From: a virus
Lineage: Duplodnaviria > Heunggongvirae > Uroviricota > Caudoviricetes
Length of the DNA: 24,228 bases
Virus record (IMG/VR): IMGVR_UViG_2541047889_000005
Location: 1 to 24,228 of that record
Strand: one strand, 5' to 3'
Both the position numbers and the translations under genes were made by a program. The stretch's first letter is position 1. Each line of letters opens with the position of its first letter. Below are positions 2,912 through 15,362 of this stretch, piece by piece. The notes beneath the pieces are model-generated. The model had not been told where the DNA came from. It made no database searches and worked only from the letters and a program-made list of their open reading frames with translations.

Positions 2912-3486
2912 ACCGGGCCTCCGGTTGTGTCGCCGCCTTTCAGGACGCCAGTATGCTGATGCGCATCAACCACGATCCCGTTAGAACTCATTGCACCGCC
3001 GCCCTGGGTAACGCCACCATTGATCACCACTTCGCTGTTAATACGCGTGCGGTCAGCCTCCAGCACAAACTCACTGGTTTTCAGGGTGATGTTGTCGGCA
3101 GCCTCAATGACCATGGATTTGATGCCCCTGACATACCAGCGCCCGGTGGCGGGTTCGTATTCAAACCAGCCACCATCAGGATGTTCTGTCACGCAGGCTT
3201 CCGCCGACGTTGACGGCGGTGCGAACTGATTCGAATAGATGGCGGGCAACGCAAAGGCGGTTTCCAGATTGCCACCCAGGCTGAACAGCACAACCTGCTC
3301 GCCCACAGACGGTTTCCACCAGGTGCGCGATTTGCCCGCGCGCAGTGTCAGCCAGTTAATCCAGTTGGTTTCAAGGTCGCCCGTTTTCACCCGGCAAAGC
3401 CAGTTCTCCCGGTCCACCTCGGTGACTACACCAGTGCGGATCAGGTTGGTGATAAGGCGCATGATTTCAGTCAGTTGTGCATTCAT
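2908..3486 (-). CDS. V: Baseplate spike/assembly protein gpV
   Basis: ORF 2908..3564; probable start at ATG 3486 (MNAQLTEIMRLITNLIRTGVVTEVD...), which aligns with the P2 gpV N-terminus; AAGGA RBS upstream. Confidence 0.8.
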   Translation of the reverse strand: MNAQLTEIMRLITNLIRTGVVTEVDRENWLCRVKTGDLETNWINWLTLRAGKSRTWWKPSVGEQVVLFSLGGNLETAFALPAIYSNQFAPPSTSAEACVTEHPDGGWFEYEPATGRWYVRGIKSMVIEAADNITLKTSEFVLEADRTRINSEVVINGGVTQGGGAMSSNGIVVDAHQHTGVLKGGDTTGGPV

Positions 3487-3534
3487 GAGAGCGATCCTTG
3501 CACAACCGGGTAGAGTGATGTAATACAGAGCGTA

Positions 3535-3555
3535 TGTATGGAGAACCACACAAAA
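3535..3555. promoter_or_regulatory. Candidate late-promoter activator site (TGT-N12-ACA dyad; Ogr/B-type)
   Basis: tgtatggagaaccacacaaaa; shares TGT-N6-AACCACACAAA with the site at 10361-10380 in the O/P divergent region. Confidence 0.35.
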
Positions 3556-3581
3556 GAGAAACAATTTCTAAGGTATTTAAG

Positions 3582-4448
3582 ATGACACAAATCGCAATTT
3601 ATGGATTTAATTTCACTAAAAAAATCACATTTGACGGTGGTGAGTTAACTCCTATTTTCAGTTCATGGAGTGAGTTAAAAAAAAATGGCTGGGCTAATGA
3701 TAGGTACATCCTCACTGGTTTTTTCAAACCAAACTCGAATAACTACGCCACTCAACAGCAGCTTATTTTTGATTTACAAGCAGTTCTTAGTTTTATTGAA
3801 CAAAAAAATGTAATCATTTCAGGAGAACTTGAAAATGATGAAACCCCTTTCAATTTCAAACCATCTCTACCCAAAAAGCTTGACAAAAAAAGAGATAAGG
3901 GTGCGGGCATTATCATCATGGAAGATTATTTTGCACCAAACAGCCGAGAAAATTTTATTTGCTTAGCCATGGAAAAACTAAATAGTAAAGCCATGCTAAA
4001 ACAAGATGCCTTTAGAACATCATTTTTTAAATCAATGCTAGCTTTCCGCGACTCAATAAATTATATCGACGTCAGATATTATTTATTATTCTCGGCACTA
4101 GAAGCACTTTGCAGATTTATTAAAAATGACTACTCCCCTGCCAAAACACCACAAATAATCACTCAGGTTTTAAAAGAATATGGTTTTAATGTCGAAAAAA
4201 CAGGACATACATTAGCTCAAAGAAACATTATGCATTACTGCAAACTCCGTCACTCGCTGTTCCACAATGGTAAATACATTGCCTATCTTGATGAAAAAAA
4301 CTCAGATGGCAAAATTGAAATTCAAGATTACTCATCAAATTTGAATTTACTGGTGCCACTTGTACTAATGAAATTCATAGGATTTGATGACAATTATATA
4401 AACTGGGACTCATGGATTGATAGGAATCCATTTATCAGTAAAAAGTAA
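3582..4448 (+). CDS. Hypothetical protein, A+T-rich cargo gene inserted between tail genes V and S on the opposite strand
   Basis: ORF 3534..4448; likely ATG at 3582 (MTQIAIYGFNFTKKITFDGG...) with AGG RBS; strongly AT-rich compared with flanking GC-rich phage genes; no recognisable motif. Confidence 0.7.
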   Translation: MTQIAIYGFNFTKKITFDGGELTPIFSSWSELKKNGWANDRYILTGFFKPNSNNYATQQQLIFDLQAVLSFIEQKNVIISGELENDETPFNFKPSLPKKLDKKRDKGAGIIIMEDYFAPNSRENFICLAMEKLNSKAMLKQDAFRTSFFKSMLAFRDSINYIDVRYYLLFSALEALCRFIKNDYSPAKTPQIITQVLKEYGFNVEKTGHTLAQRNIMHYCKLRHSLFHNGKYIAYLDEKNSDGKIEIQDYSSNLNLLVPLVLMKFIGFDDNYINWDSWIDRNPFISKK

Positions 4449-4921: not shown

Positions 4922-5345
4922 GTTTCACCGTCCACATTTCTTCAGGTTCATCAGGTTCCGCTATAGCTTCAACGCTCGACACACTGCCGTCAGTGCTGAC
5001 CAGCACACGCTCCGTCAGTTGCAGGTTCAGGCTGATATCACAGACATCGTTGCGCAGAATATCCACCTCAAAGGTGAATAGTTTTTCCCGTAACGCCGGG
5101 TTATTGATGGCATCGGGCTGGTTATCCCGCAGCCACAGCAAAACCGGGGCCATCAGCAGATTCTGGTCGCCGCTGAAATCCTCAATCACTGCGTTCAGCG
5201 TGTAACGGTACTCCCACGACATGGAGCTGGTCCCCGTGGCAACCAGCGAACCGTTATCCACAAACAGATGCAGTTTGTCCGGGTTATTGCGGACATAAGG
5301 CACTGCTTTATTAAGGGCGTGGCGCAGGGATTGTGGTTTGTTCAC
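4914..5345 (-). CDS. R: Tail completion protein gpR
   Basis: ORF 4914..5366; probable GTG start at 5345 preceded by AGGAGC, giving (M)NKPQSLRHALNKAV..., which matches the P2 gpR N-terminus. Confidence 0.75.
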   Translation of the reverse strand: MNKPQSLRHALNKAVPYVRNNPDKLHLFVDNGSLVATGTSSMSWEYRYTLNAVIEDFSGDQNLLMAPVLLWLRDNQPDAINNPALREKLFTFEVDILRNDVCDISLNLQLTERVLVSTDGSVSSVEAIAEPDEPEEMWTVKRG

Positions 5346-5592
5346 TGTTTCGCTCCTGACACGCAATAATCATGTCCACTTTGTCTGCACAGACCGCCCA
5401 GGCGGCCTCCGTTTCATCCAGCAACGCGTTCAGCTCACCGTTAGTGCGCGGCGCTGTCTGATCCAGCCGACACGGCGTCACTCGCGGACAACCACTGACG
5501 GTAAGCTGCACCTCCGGTGAGTGCCGGACGTTCCCGCAGCCGGATAATGTCAGCAGGCAAAGGAGTATCAGCCCAGCGGCGTAAATCCTCAT
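5311..5592 (-). CDS. lysC: Outer-membrane spanin lipoprotein (LysC/Rz1-like), embedded out of frame in lysB 3' end and overlapping R
   Basis: MRIYAAGLILLCLLTLSGC... has a lipobox (LSGC) after a signal peptide; proline-rich; nested in the +1 frame of the i-spanin gene as in P2 lysB/lysC. Confidence 0.7.
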   Translation of the reverse strand: MRIYAAGLILLCLLTLSGCGNVRHSPEVQLTVSGCPRVTPCRLDQTAPRTNGELNALLDETEAAWAVCADKVDMIIACQERNSEQTTIPAPRP

Positions 5593-5869
5593 TCTCACGT
5601 TTCAGTTCCTCAATCCGGCGTTGTCGTTGTCTCAGCAGCGCGCTGGTCTGTTCTGCGTCGGCATAGAGCCGCGCCTGCTCCCGGTTATTGGTTTCAGTCA
5701 GAATGGACAGGCTGATAAGCTGGCTGTTGCTCTTTGCCAGTGCCTGGCTTTTGCTCTGCAGCTCGTCCGCCTGCGTGCTGATGGTCCGGCTGGCATCAGC
5801 CAGCCGCCACGTCTGCCAGCCCAGCGCCGCCAGTAATAACGCCAGCATAACCAGCAGCAACCGGTTCAT
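5441..5869 (-). CDS. lysB: Inner-membrane spanin (LysB/Rz-like)
   Basis: 142 aa; N-terminal TM (MNRLLLVMLALLLAALGWQTW) followed by a coiled-coil-like charged region (ELKRENEDLRR); start overlaps lysA stop. Confidence 0.8.
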   Translation of the reverse strand: MNRLLLVMLALLLAALGWQTWRLADASRTISTQADELQSKSQALAKSNSQLISLSILTETNNREQARLYADAEQTSALLRQRQRRIEELKRENEDLRRWADTPLPADIIRLRERPALTGGAAYRQWLSASDAVSAGSDSAAH

Positions 5870-6243
5870 GCTGCTACCTGTTGCGCCATCTGATTACGGG
5901 TGATCCAGAAGGCAATAACGGTCAGTAGATAAAAGACCAGGGTAATAGCCCACCCCGTCCAGACGAGACTTACGACAATCAGCAATCGCATCACCCAGCT
6001 GATAAATACGTTTTCTTTTCGGGTAATGGTCTTCAGCAAAGATACCCTCAACTCCTGCCAGAGCGAGCCATTCTTAATTAACGCAGCCAGTGCTACCGGA
6101 ATTGCCGCCCATGTCAGTAAACAGGCTACCCAAACGCCGGACGCTGCCAGTACCGGAAAAATCCCCTGCGGATACACCATTGCTGCGATTAACAGCGCCA
6201 TCCATAACATCAGAAACAGTCCGCTGATTAATTTCTTTTTCAT
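5866..6243 (-). CDS. lysA: LysA-like lysis-timing membrane protein
   Basis: ORF 5866..6315; likely start at ATG 6243 (MKKKLISGLFLMLWMALLIAAMV...); about four hydrophobic segments; sits between endolysin and spanins as in P2. Confidence 0.65.
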   Translation of the reverse strand: MKKKLISGLFLMLWMALLIAAMVYPQGIFPVLAASGVWVACLLTWAAIPVALAALIKNGSLWQELRVSLLKTITRKENVFISWVMRLLIVVSLVWTGWAITLVFYLLTVIAFWITRNQMAQQVAA

Positions 6244-6244
6244 T

Positions 6245-6757
6245 TCAGTTTGCTCCCTGTAAGCACCAGGCCATCTCCCGCGCACGGCGGTTATCCAGCC
6301 CCTGATTAAACACACCTTTCACATACACCCAGCGCGGCAACTGTCGGCACGCATCCGCCCAGCGCCGCTGATTGAGCAATTTCACCAGCGTGGAGCTGCA
6401 GGCATTGCCTGTCCCCACGTTGAAGGCAAATGACACCACCGCGTCATACACTTTCTGCGGTGGCTGTTGCTTCACACACCTTTCCAGTGACCGCTCCACA
6501 CGCAGCACGTTGGAGATAAGCCCTTCTGCTGCCTGTCGTTCCGTAATGGTTTTGCCGGGAATGACGTCCGACGTATTACCAATGCCGTCAGTCCATACAC
6601 CCGCGCTGCACTGATACGGCTGCAGACGACAGCCTTCGTAATCGGCAATCAGTTTCAGTCCTTCCACGGAGGTGTGAAGCTGCTGAAAACCCGGCAGCGT
6701 GGCAGCAATAGCCAGCACGGCCCCGACAAGGCAGCGTTTAACGATTGATGGATTCAT
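6245..6757 (-). CDS. K: Endolysin, GH24 lysozyme family with N-terminal hydrophobic signal-anchor (SAR-type)
   Basis: 170 aa; N-terminal VKRCLVGAVLAIAATLPGF hydrophobic stretch, then ADYEGCRLQPYQCSAGVWTDGIGNT (E-x8-C/D-x5-T lysozyme catalytic motif as in P21 R-type endolysins); strong GGGAGGA RBS. Confidence 0.8.
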   Translation of the reverse strand: MNPSIVKRCLVGAVLAIAATLPGFQQLHTSVEGLKLIADYEGCRLQPYQCSAGVWTDGIGNTSDVIPGKTITERQAAEGLISNVLRVERSLERCVKQQPPQKVYDAVVSFAFNVGTGNACSSTLVKLLNQRRWADACRQLPRWVYVKGVFNQGLDNRRAREMAWCLQGAN

Positions 6758-6953
6758 AATCCTCCCGCGAGATCTGCCCGTCGCGCAGAAGCTGGTAGGC
6801 TTTGTGTTTGTAGTACCAGTTGATAGCCAGCATCAGTACACCAATCATCAGGCCGCCCAGCGTTGAGGCATCCTTGATGGACAAATCGCCCAGCCAGGCC
6901 AGCACGACGGCGATGCAATACGTGATAAAGGCGCTGATTCGCTCAAGCGTCAT
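6738..6953 (-). CDS. Y: Holin (small, two-TM class II type; possible pinholin)
   Basis: 71 aa with two hydrophobic segments and a charged C-terminus, immediately upstream of and overlapping the endolysin gene. Confidence 0.7.
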   Translation of the reverse strand: MTLERISAFITYCIAVVLAWLGDLSIKDASTLGGLMIGVLMLAINWYYKHKAYQLLRDGQISREDYESINR

Positions 6954-6956
6954 AAT

Positions 6957-7160
6957 TCAGTCCCATAGCTGGACGGTCTGCACGGTGGTGGTTGTCGGAA
7001 TGTCCGGCAGCTCCACCTGCAGCCCGTGAGGTAAAAAGGGGCCGTATTCGGCAAGCCCCGGATTTGCCTTCAGTACCTGCTCCGTGACACCCTGCGTGCG
7101 CCCGTAATGACGCCAGCAAAGTGCGTCCACCGTGTCATACTGATGCGCACGCACTTTCAT
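6957..7160 (-). CDS. X: Tail protein gpX
   Basis: 67 aa (MKVRAHQYDTVDALCWRHYG...), same size and position as P2 gpX. Confidence 0.75.
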   Translation of the reverse strand: MKVRAHQYDTVDALCWRHYGRTQGVTEQVLKANPGLAEYGPFLPHGLQVELPDIPTTTTVQTVQLWD

Positions 7161-13261: not shown

Positions 13262-14266
13262 TTATTCTTCTGAATCATCATAAACATCCATTCCTTCGGT
13301 CTGATTTCTAATATAAGAAGTCCCCATAGAATTAGCAATCGCAGTCCGAATTAACCCTACATGAGTGAAAAACACCCCTAACCTAGCACGCTTTAACTCA
13401 GACTCATCATCATAGTCATCTTCATTACTTATAATTCTTCTAACCATTGCCTTATCTTCGTCAATAGCCGAAGGTAGCCCACTCTTTAAAGCGTCAATAC
13501 ACTCACCTACAGTTATAATTTTATTTTTAATTAATTCAGAAAGCAAATCATCATAATTTTCATCATCAGATTTATTATCAGGTGGTAATTCACTTGCAGC
13601 TATCATTTTCAGCAATTCTACGTCAAGCATAGTTCCTCTATCTAGTCTGCTTGTCTCAACATACCCCTCACGCTCTGATAACACTCTTTCAAATTCGAAA
13701 TCAACGACTTCAAGCAAAGCAGATACTCTATTAATTGCTCGCCTAAGAGGAAGTGGAACACTTTGCTCTTTTTTGTATTGCAGTTTATGAGATGCTGCAG
13801 CCCAAATATGCTGAGAAAGCGTTCGTATTTGCACCTCCACTTTCATATTTTTAAAATCACTAAAGGATGGAACTCTTAGCCATTCTTCTGGAGGTTGTAT
13901 TACATAATGATGAGATTGGTACCCAAATCTATCCTCATCCAGTTCATCAAGTTTATTCTCTTGCTTCAAAATAATGAAATGTTCTTTCAGACAAGATATA
14001 ACCTTTTCAACATCTCGCTTAAATAGCATTATTAATCGGATTCCAACATAATCATCCAAGTCAACTATTGACTCAATCTTTAGAGGTTTTCGGTTATCCT
14101 TATTAATAATAGAACTTAATGTTTTGACACGGCTTTCAATTGGAACCCCTAAAGACAATTTATTCTCCGACAAAATAACATCAATTTGCTCAACCATAAC
14201 TCGTCTGAACAATTCCGCAACTGAGCCGTAAATTGAATGCTGTTCTTTTAATTCTTCGTCTGTCAT
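13262..14266 (-). CDS. RelA/SpoT-fold nucleotidyltransferase (small alarmone synthetase-like; candidate toxSAS/CapRel-like fused toxin-antitoxin)
   Basis: 334 aa; synthetase-fold motifs ESRVKTLSSIINK, DYVGIRLIMLF, FGYQSHHYVI, EVQIRTLSQHIWAAASHKLQYK; about 130-aa acidic C-terminal extension; AT-rich; lies between portal gene and cos. Confidence 0.7.
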   Translation of the reverse strand: MTDEELKEQHSIYGSVAELFRRVMVEQIDVILSENKLSLGVPIESRVKTLSSIINKDNRKPLKIESIVDLDDYVGIRLIMLFKRDVEKVISCLKEHFIILKQENKLDELDEDRFGYQSHHYVIQPPEEWLRVPSFSDFKNMKVEVQIRTLSQHIWAAASHKLQYKKEQSVPLPLRRAINRVSALLEVVDFEFERVLSEREGYVETSRLDRGTMLDVELLKMIAASELPPDNKSDDENYDDLLSELIKNKIITVGECIDALKSGLPSAIDEDKAMVRRIISNEDDYDDESELKRARLGVFFTHVGLIRTAIANSMGTSYIRNQTEGMDVYDDSEE

Positions 14267-14519: not shown

Positions 14520-15362
14520 TCATGCACGATCATTTGACTCAGCATCTGCTGCACGCTTGCTGCGCGAAGATGCACTTTTACTATCAATCTTTCGACAGTT
14601 CTTTCTATCCCTGGCTTCATTTTCTTTAAATTTGTTATATGTCTCAGTATCAAAAAACGAAATTGTTTCAACCTCATCTTTTGGTATGAGCACACGGAAA
14701 TCTTCGATATTAAGCCGAGACATTCCACTTATCACACCACTATCAAGATAATGTTGGTGATAGTTAGTCGTGATACTAATCGTTAGATCATCTTTATCCC
14801 GATATCCGCTTAACATCGGGAGAAGTTCAAGGTGCTCTGAAAGCCCGTTTTCTAACGCCGGACAAGTAACAAGACCAACATAGATTTTGCGAGACGACAG
14901 AGTTGCTATGATCGGAAACTGTCTTGCGGACGCTTCCATGAGTAATGATTCGAAAGCGTTATTACCCACAGCTTTAGCTAAGGCATCCCAGCGACGATCT
15001 CCACGTGATGTGCGTAACTTATTTCCAAAACCTGAAATCGCAGCGAGGACAATTGAAATCATAACCCATGCTATCTGTTTGATTTCATTTATTCTTTGAA
15101 GTTTGTCTTTCGATGAAGACAACATGCCATTAAAACTGTCAGGTGTTAGATTCAAGGCATTAGCCAGCCAACGAAACCCTCCGCTGACGTTCAAAATAAA
15201 GGTGAAAAAACCGCCAAGGAGAAAAAAAACGATACCCCAGGCAGCCACAAAAAAATAAGCGTCCCAGCCGTTGGAACGCTTATATCGGTATCTTGTTGAA
15301 AGTGATAGGTTTACATAAATAAAACCACTAACCAAAATCACTGCTAAAAGTAATGTTGCCAT
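14520..15362 (-). CDS. Hypothetical membrane protein: three N-terminal TM helices plus about 165-aa cytoplasmic domain
   Basis: 280 aa; hydrophobic segments ATLLLAVILVSGFIYV, AYFFVAAWGIVFFLLGGFFTFIL, IAWVMISIVLAAISGF; start overlaps the stop of the upstream 71-aa gene (TAATG). Confidence 0.65.
   Translation of the reverse strand: MATLLLAVILVSGFIYVNLSLSTRYRYKRSNGWDAYFFVAAWGIVFFLLGGFFTFILNVSGGFRWLANALNLTPDSFNGMLSSSKDKLQRINEIKQIAWVMISIVLAAISGFGNKLRTSRGDRRWDALAKAVGNNAFESLLMEASARQFPIIATLSSRKIYVGLVTCPALENGLSEHLELLPMLSGYRDKDDLTISITTNYHQHYLDSGVISGMSRLNIEDFRVLIPKDEVETISFFDTETYNKFKENEARDRKNCRKIDSKSASSRSKRAADAESNDRA

Follow-up and report, generated by a model that had tools for sequence, protein, structure and literature searches.

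The 24,228-nucleotide stretch of viral DNA analysed here (the window; positions 1 to 24,228 of the IMG/VR record IMGVR_UViG_2541047889_000005, Caudoviricetes) carries a holin gene and an endolysin gene whose exact combined extent is positions 6245-6953. The locus raises the question of how such a pair would lyse its host: in what state the endolysin is exported and held, what sets it free, and whether the holin forms holes large enough to conduct proteins. An earlier, sequence-only reading had proposed a SAR endolysin of the phage 21 R type and a small class II holin, set in a P2-like backbone. In our assessment, which draws on analogy with characterized phages, the whole is probably a P2 lysis operon with one exchanged pair of genes, coding for a SAR endolysin of the P1 Lyz type, a likely small-hole holin and a LysB/LysC spanin.

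The genomic background is readily recognized. Elsewhere in the window are encoded a P2-family capsid protein (E 3.9e-152), scaffold, terminase, portal, GPA replication protein and integrase; P2-family Pfam matches were obtained for the terminase, portal and GPA as well, and also for gpL and gpX. The structural and replication genes are of the P2 type and stand in the P2 order, as befits the Peduoviridae, and the window shares about 95% nucleotide identity over 80% of its length with classified members of this family from Klebsiella and E. coli. Both observations bear out the P2-like backbone, and the cassette represents the late-operon lysis genes of a P2-like (Peduoviridae) prophage. Matches in Pfam and PHROGs, together with a comparison against the genome of P2, identified each of its genes. 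On the minus strand, the gene for the head completion protein gpL ends at 7160 and is followed by that for the tail protein gpX (7160..6957; Pfam Phage_tail_X, E 2.2e-34; 61% identity to P2 X), the holin gene (6953..6738; 71 aa) and the endolysin gene (6757..6245; 170 aa). The latter two overlap by 20 nt, such that the endolysin ATG lies within the holin gene. Downstream of the endolysin come lysA, lysB and lysC, as had been proposed and as coordinates, Pfam and PHROG matches and the comparison with P2 all indicate, and the gene for the tail completion protein gpR comes after lysC.

From its sequence, the endolysin is assigned as a GH24 (T4-lysozyme-like) muramidase domain with an N-terminal SAR segment. 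The match to Pfam Phage_lysozyme (PF00959, E 2.9e-40) covers residues 39-161 and includes the catalytic stretch E41-G-C43-x6-C50-x5-T56 (6590..6637, minus strand), which reads in full E41-G-C43-R-L-Q-P-Y-Q-C50-S-A-G-V-W-T56; the previously noted motif E-x8-C-x5-T is thus found in the translation as E41-x8-C50-x5-T56. The stretch was aligned with P1 Lyz, HP1 Lys and R21, and E41, C50 and T56 coincide with the triad residues of P1 Lyz and R21, indicating an intact muramidase triad. Ahead of this domain, the N-terminus runs M-N-P-S-I-V-K7-R8 and continues with 16 uncharged residues, C9-LVGAVLAIAATLPG-F24. These constitute the predicted SAR, or signal-anchor, segment (residues 9-24, CLVGAVLAIAATLPGF; 6686..6733, minus strand), which follows directly on K7-R8, contains the invariant C9 and consists of G, A, S or T to the extent of 44%. 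Its hydrophobicity is 0.08 per residue on the Hessa scale and 2.11 on the Kyte-Doolittle scale. Per residue, the SAR domains of P1 Lyz, R21 and HP1 Lys score 0.06, 0.08 and -0.01, respectively, on the Hessa scale, and the helices of LysA and LysB in this window about -0.2. The segment accordingly matches proven SAR domains on two hydrophobicity scales and is less hydrophobic than the stable LysA and LysB helices, in keeping with the signal-anchor that had been placed before the GH24 domain. In 19 homologues neither R8 nor C9 varies, and the K-R-C motif can be followed to homologues with as little as 56% identity. A lipoprotein signal at this N-terminus was considered and rejected, V-K-R-C being no lipobox, and no twin-arginine motif was seen there.

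The anchor would be lost if translation began further downstream, which is how one deposited phage record (ON470620.1) annotates the gene: from a GTG at codon 14, giving a protein of 157 aa that would be a soluble cytoplasmic endolysin and would need no gene overlap. Such a start is extremely improbable. Codons 7-13, which span the interval from the holin stop to the alternative GTG, differ from those of the Klebsiella phage ST15-OXA48phi14.1 at four positions, and all four differences (4/4) are synonymous in the endolysin frame. The Yersinia phage vB_YenM_201.16 has ATT at the position of the GTG yet retains the upstream M-N-S-I-V-K-R-C. A Shine-Dalgarno-like GGGAGG (6761..6766, minus strand) is located 3 nt ahead of the endolysin start codon and still within the holin gene, at its 3' end, and RefSeq uses the form of 170/171 aa, one such cluster counting 1753 sequences. 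Because the upstream changes are synonymous only, the Yersinia relative has ATT, K-R-C persists, GGGAGG precedes the ATG and RefSeq has the long form, the GTG start is judged to be wrong and the ATG, as read from these comparisons, to be the true one, so that the anchor survives scrutiny of the start codon. The gene overlap and the position of the GGGAGG would also permit translational coupling of holin and endolysin. A purine-rich run at the same position, together with an overlap of 17-20 nt, occurs in one Klebsiella and one Yersinia relative, and the holin and endolysin genes of HP1 overlap by 8 nt.

The type of SAR endolysin is indicated largely by three cysteines. In the alignment, C9, C43 and C50 occupy the positions of C13, C44 and C51 of P1 Lyz, an enzyme which is reportedly governed by disulfide isomerisation; across the 19 homologues C9 and C50 never vary, and C43 almost never does. 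The protein thus combines a Cys at x8, a Cys two residues past the catalytic Glu and an anchor Cys, which together define the P1 Lyz type, and it shows neither the E-x8-D-x5-T motif nor the cysteine-free anchor that define the R21 type. Under the mechanism of P1 Lyz, an association between the anchor cysteine and the E-C-C pattern is to be expected. Diverse relatives of the endolysin were represented by 50%-identity cluster representatives (38-80% identity). Where the N-terminal hydrophobic extension and the E-C-C pattern are both present, 19 of the 23 relatives have the anchor cysteine, the four exceptions having shortened N-termini that resemble mis-called starts, and it is found in neither of the two relatives with E-x8-D. 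Many relatives without an N-terminal extension share the E-G-C...C pattern, and for this reason C43 and C50 alone are no proof of caging. Taken with C9, they point to an endolysin that is probably of the P1 Lyz type and disulfide-switched.

Two other modes of action were weighed against this assignment. In the R21 type, to which the sequence-only reading had likened the enzyme, activation proceeds by refolding after release from the membrane, with no disulfide control. R21 is a clear homologue (3HDE, E 7e-19; 36% identity), and the present endolysin resembles it in lacking the 11-residue insertion common to P1 Lyz and HP1 Lys. However, R21 has Asp at x8, where the endolysin has Cys, and the R21 anchor contains a G-G-G run and is devoid of cysteine, whereas the anchor here contains a single G12 along with C9; both C43 and the anchor cysteine are present and conserved. 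P1 Lyz also stands above R21 by sequence and by fold: it is the best match in the PDB sequence ranking (1XJT, E 1.6e-25; 37% identity, compared to 34% for HP1 Lys) and the structure closest in fold to the AF2 model (TM 0.73), a model whose mean pLDDT of 68, with values below 50 for residues 42-66, supports overall fold similarity only. The R21 mode is therefore very improbable for this enzyme. Of the two proteins proposed for alignment, P21 R proved to be a clear homologue of the endolysin and S21 a remote one of the holin, but the R-type triad and anchor are absent. Alternatively, the N-terminal segment could be a cleavable Sec signal peptide, resulting in a secreted endolysin like Lys44 of fOg44 that is restrained only by the energised membrane. 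K7 and R8 could serve as an n-region ahead of the hydrophobic core, possible cleavage sites are seen by inspection after A18, A19 or G23, and SignalP also gives that call for HP1 Lys. Yet the whole anchor, including R8-C9, is conserved to the same degree as the catalytic domain, which a peptide destined for removal would rarely show; the anchor cysteine co-occurs with the cysteine at the catalytic position; and some homologues, e.g. VATVLLLAVLVPDF, have no acceptable -3/-1 site. In P1 Lyz the anchor is retained in the mature enzyme, and the 1XJT entry, matched by both sequence and fold, is full length. Cleavage of the segment is thus considered improbable. When cloned, the full-length endolysin is likely to be toxic, and its cysteines are likely to be important.

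The holin (translation MTLERIS...ESINR, 71 aa) is named 'HP1 family phage holin' in RefSeq and matches phrog_20 'holin' (E 1.9e-26). Its only hydrophobic stretches are residues 6-22 and 29-48, followed by a charged 23-residue tail, and hence a third helix does not fit. The protein is predicted to be a class II holin with two transmembrane helices in an N-in/C-in topology; the two-helix holin of the sequence-only reading is thereby upheld against a topology of three. The loop is acidic (D23, D28), and K49-H50-K51 stand directly after the second helix. Helix 1 (residues 6-22, ISAFITYCIAVVLAWLG; 6888..6938, minus strand), delimited by hydropathy and conservation, is short, at 16-17 residues, and strongly conserved, with a nearly invariant C13. 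Helix 2 (residues 29-48, ASTLGGLMIGVLMLAINWYY; 6810..6869, minus strand), delimited by conservation and alignment with S21, carries the pattern S30-x3-G34-x3-G38 together with N45; among the aligned relatives G34 is invariant and G38 nearly so.

By Pfam, the holin belongs to PF16080 (Phage_holin_2_3, the HP1 family), which it matches with 36.7 bits against a cut-off of 28.8 and which is also matched by all 15 aligned holin relatives; its score against PF04971 (P21 S), 23.2 bits, falls short of the cut-off of 26. A profile of diverse holin relatives nevertheless aligns with S21 over residues 2-51 (hhalign 93.3%, E 2.7e-7), placing G34, G38 and N45 opposite S44, G48 and N55 of S21 helix 2. The S21 sequence used for this alignment was validated against the Pfam family to which it belongs, which it matches over its full length with 122 bits. 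Judged by these profiles, the holin is a remote homologue of phage 21 S that lies outside PF04971 by the rule of Pfam. Direct comparison with HP1 Hol detected nothing (BLASTP E 4.5; hhalign 4.6%), despite the common Pfam family. A scan of IMG/VR with the holin alignment returned 80 loci, uniform in cassette and all with 100% holin identity to the query, and no diversity was gained.

The holin could be a pinholin or a large-hole holin. An adjacent endolysin with a SAR-like N-terminus was found for all eight of the holin relatives read (8/8), a small sample comprising five P2-like loci (Klebsiella, Yersinia and Erwinia), HP1, a lambdoid Yersinia phage, in which the holin adjoins an R21-type enzyme, and a Pseudomonas podophage; none of these relatives has a soluble endolysin as partner. 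Phage 21 S and R presumably represent the same pairing of holin and SAR endolysin. The earlier statement that SAR endolysins pair with pinholins does not hold as a blanket rule, since SAR endolysins also work with ordinary holins, as P1 Lyz does with LydA. Helix 1 of the present holin is not SAR-like by the standard of S21. We know of no description of LydA as a pinholin. One published abstract lists Lyz together with the holin LydA and the antiholin LydB and makes no mention of hole size. With a canonical class II holin that makes large holes, a SAR endolysin would also be set free, through the depolarisation caused by any holin. The hydropathy of helix 1 is in line with such a holin: its Kyte-Doolittle mean is 2.12, like that of an ordinary membrane helix, relative to 0.33 for helix 1 of S21 and 1.32 for that of HP1 Hol. 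Exit of helix 1 from the membrane in the style of S21 is not evident, because the helix is far more hydrophobic than helix 1 of S21 and six residues shorter; its hydropathy is near that of endolysin SAR domains (about 2.0). An S21-like dual-start antiholin is likewise lacking, the N-terminus (M-T-L-E-R) containing no dual-start motif; dual starts do occur in Yersinia and Erwinia relatives (M-G-L-K-M-E-K and M-K-M-E-K). Against large holes stand the profile homology to the S21 pinholin, which takes in the small-residue pattern of helix 2, the uniformly SAR-like partners of the relatives, and membership in the Pfam family named for HP1 Hol. In HP1, the closest experimental system within the same virus family, Hol showed the behaviour of a pinholin and Lys that of a SAR endolysin; Hol killed cells without release of beta-galactosidase and was needed for phage release (PMC7312051). 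A large-hole holin is therefore a tentative and somewhat unlikely alternative, a pinholin is likely, and by analogy the holes are most likely small ones that would collapse the proton-motive force.

The three genes downstream would complete the lysis cassette. LysA (6243..5866, minus strand; 125 aa) is predicted to be a polytopic membrane protein; at least three hydrophobic helices were detected, and their number is probably four. It matches phrog_162 (E 1.1e-42), into which P2 lysA of NC_001895 also falls and which is mislabelled 'endolysin' in PHROG; its direct similarity to P2 LysA is weak. LysA is a candidate lysis-timing regulator or antiholin on the sole basis of the note 'affects timing of lysis' in the P2 record. 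The idea that it replaces the dual-start antiholin was rejected: the Klebsiella phage ST13-OXA48phi12.1 has neither and the Erwinia phage EtG has both. LysB (5869..5441, minus strand; 142 aa) matches phrog_89 'Rz-like spanin' (E 8.4e-46), shares 40% identity with the C-terminal part of P2 LysB and is assigned by homology as the inner-membrane spanin subunit with an N-terminal helix. LysC (5598..5311, minus strand; 95 aa) matches Pfam PF23793 LysC (E 4.7e-15), carries the lipobox L-S-G-C21 and is, on these features, the outer-membrane lipoprotein subunit of the spanin. Its start is placed at the GTG at 5598 because the similarity to P2 LysC (40% identity) spans residues 1-92 in both proteins. 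The lysC gene begins within lysB in another frame and ends 130 nt beyond the lysB stop, so that the two genes, formerly described as nested, are in fact overlapped in the P2 layout.

A sequence of events can be proposed, inferred entirely from P1 Lyz, phage 21 S/R and HP1 Hol/Lys. The endolysin would be exported by Sec and would remain tethered to the inner membrane by the uncleaved residues 9-24, K7-R8-C9 lying on the cytoplasmic side, and in this state it would be inactive, C50, at the catalytic position, being locked in a disulfide with C43. Meanwhile the 71-aa, two-helix holin would build up in the membrane and then trigger, forming small rather than protein-conducting holes. Upon depolarisation, the weakly hydrophobic anchor could leave the bilayer, whereupon C9 would attack the C43-C50 disulfide, free C50 and render the muramidase active along the whole sacculus. 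The LysB/LysC spanin would then disrupt the outer membrane, and LysA probably modulates the timing of lysis. A more specific version, which we consider rather unlikely, is a pinholin variant that differs from S21 in having a short, highly conserved and stably inserted helix 1 (with the near-invariant C13), no in-frame antiholin, timing in trans by a four-helix LysA inherited from the P2 cassette and a P1 Lyz-type partner with its switch cysteine in an invariant K-R-C motif on the cytoplasmic edge of the anchor. If true, the combination of a pinholin variant with LysA and an edge-cysteine endolysin would represent a third wiring of the pinholin/SAR system.

The cassette is widespread and already known, and nothing of substance about it is new. 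The 709-base segment containing holin and endolysin occurs at 100% identity in no fewer than five E. coli chromosomes, where the gene products are annotated as 'lysozyme' and 'HP1 family phage holin'; of 5426 complete E. coli genomes, 1031, about a fifth, carry the segment. The whole cassette recurs at 96.8-97.5% nucleotide identity in at least 25 deposited phages; near-identical copies, several with a holin protein that is 100% identical, are found in the Klebsiella phages KP12, 4LV2017 and Kp48xx and the Escherichia phages 500465-1, vB_EcoM-813R9 and Cartapus. For KP12, whose cassette is about 97% identical, the endolysin has been described as like P1 Lyz with a conserved SAR domain, and the cassette as 'P1/P2-like' (PMC9902359). 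A search for literature on SAR endolysins in Fels-2 or, more broadly, across the Peduoviridae yielded nothing specific beyond the HP1 and KP12 papers. The importance of the locus beyond correct annotation is small. A common prophage enzyme of E. coli and Klebsiella emerges as a membrane-tethered, probably disulfide-switched lysozyme, which is useful to anyone cloning it, and several database errors are corrected, namely the endolysin cut to an internal GTG, LysA called 'endolysin' and lysC shortened without its lipobox.

Several known systems invite comparison. The endolysin shares with P1 Lyz the GH24 domain, the pattern E-G-C-x6-C-x5-T, the SAR cysteine and the same SAR hydrophobicity. It differs in that the anchor cysteine of P1 Lyz, C13, lies in mid-helix, whereas C9 lies at the cytoplasmic edge, at the start of the segment (K-R-C9); the P1 anchor is also longer, at about 20 residues compared to 16, and the 11-residue insertion is absent here. 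In P1, lyz lies apart from the holin genes, whereas the two genes overlap in the present locus. Phage 21 S is likewise a 71-aa, two-helix class II holin with a SAR-type partner endolysin, yet it has a dual start, a releasable helix 1 rich in Gly and Ser and a lambdoid context, and R21 carries E-G-V-x6-D-x5-T, with Asp for Cys and no disulfide switch. HP1 offers a parallel within the Peduoviridae: its holin gene overlaps a downstream gene for a Cys-type SAR endolysin, there is no dual start, and both holins belong to PF16080. However, no lysA or lysC homologue is annotated in HP1, helix 1 of its Hol is much less hydrophobic, and the two holins lack direct similarity by hhalign. The cassettes of KP12, 4LV2017, Kp48xx, 500465-1, vB_EcoM-813R9 and Cartapus and of the E. 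coli prophages show no substantive difference from the present one, although cargo genes elsewhere differ.

The overall layout corresponds to that of P2 itself, in which the cassette also lies between X and R, with homologous, overlapped LysB and LysC and a lysA-family gene. Yet in P2 the holin (Y) has 93 aa and the endolysin (K) 165 aa, the latter with no N-terminal anchor. L, X, R, LysB and LysC show 40-61% identity to the corresponding P2 proteins (41-61% for L, X and R), but the holin and endolysin are similar to neither Y nor K of P2. Since the neighbours are P2-like and these two proteins are unrelated to Y and K, the first two genes of the P2 operon have evidently given way to a pair like those of HP1, P1 and phage 21, with gpX as the upstream border of the exchanged pair. 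The locus thus provides a tidy case of the exchange of a holin-endolysin module within an otherwise conserved P2 lysis operon.

Upstream of its ATG, the lysA reading frame remains open for 24 codons and reaches back into the 3' end of the endolysin gene (window 6243-6315, minus strand), and therefore any frameshift in this region joins the lysozyme to LysA. Many such fusions, of 276-296 aa and with differing junctions, are found in the protein database, where they are mostly singletons. The majority are probably sequencing errors. One fusion, P0013, is found on 30 contigs and may be a genuine allele belonging to a prophage in decay.

The annotation of the cassette also contains errors in deposited records. 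In the relative ON470620.1, the endolysin is annotated from an internal GTG, giving a product of 157 aa which lacks the anchor, and lysC is annotated at only 56 aa, without its lipoprotein signal and lipobox; these misannotated genes occupy positions 3946-4419 (endolysin) and 3012-3182 (lysC). PHROG family 162, to which the lysA of the window belongs (5866-6243, minus strand), is labelled "endolysin", even though P2 lysA (NC_001895), a polytopic membrane protein, is also placed in it. Because of this label, several RefSeq phage records show two endolysins in this cassette; the records concerned include NC_049342 and NC_047818.

The holin of the window lacks the classic dual-start motif (M-G-L-K-M-E-K or M-K-M-E-K), unlike its relatives in Yersinia and Erwinia phages (loci L005, L007, L008 and L009). 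LysA is present in some of the cassettes of these phages and missing from others, and among them no link was found between its presence and the holin dual start.

Two further regions of the window each carry a possible cargo gene. A 334-aa ORF (13262-14266, minus strand), with the portal gene on one side and the replication region on the other, contains a nucleotidyltransferase domain of the RelA/SpoT type (Pfam, E 7.5e-20). It also matches the PADLOC candidate defence family PDC-S33 (E 1.8e-16), and is possibly an anti-phage cargo gene of the toxic small-alarmone-synthetase type. Adjoining it is a 280-aa ORF of unknown function (14520-15362, minus strand; phrog_3630, E 8.8e-99), for which no match was found in Pfam or PADLOC. 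The second region, at the position of P2 orf30, is occupied by a 304-aa ORF on the opposite strand (3534-4448, plus strand), flanked by tail genes S and V. It matches phrog_4373, a family of unknown function (E 2.8e-142), and searches of Pfam and PADLOC returned nothing. This site looks like a variable cargo slot, since the related phage vB_EcoM-813R9 has different genes there, coding for a "putative enzyme with ATPase activity" and a hypothetical protein.

Downstream in the cassette, lysC runs about 35 nt into tail gene R, its 3' end covering the beginning of that gene (window 5311-5366, minus strand). The same overlap is present in P2, in which an attenuator is annotated inside lysC.
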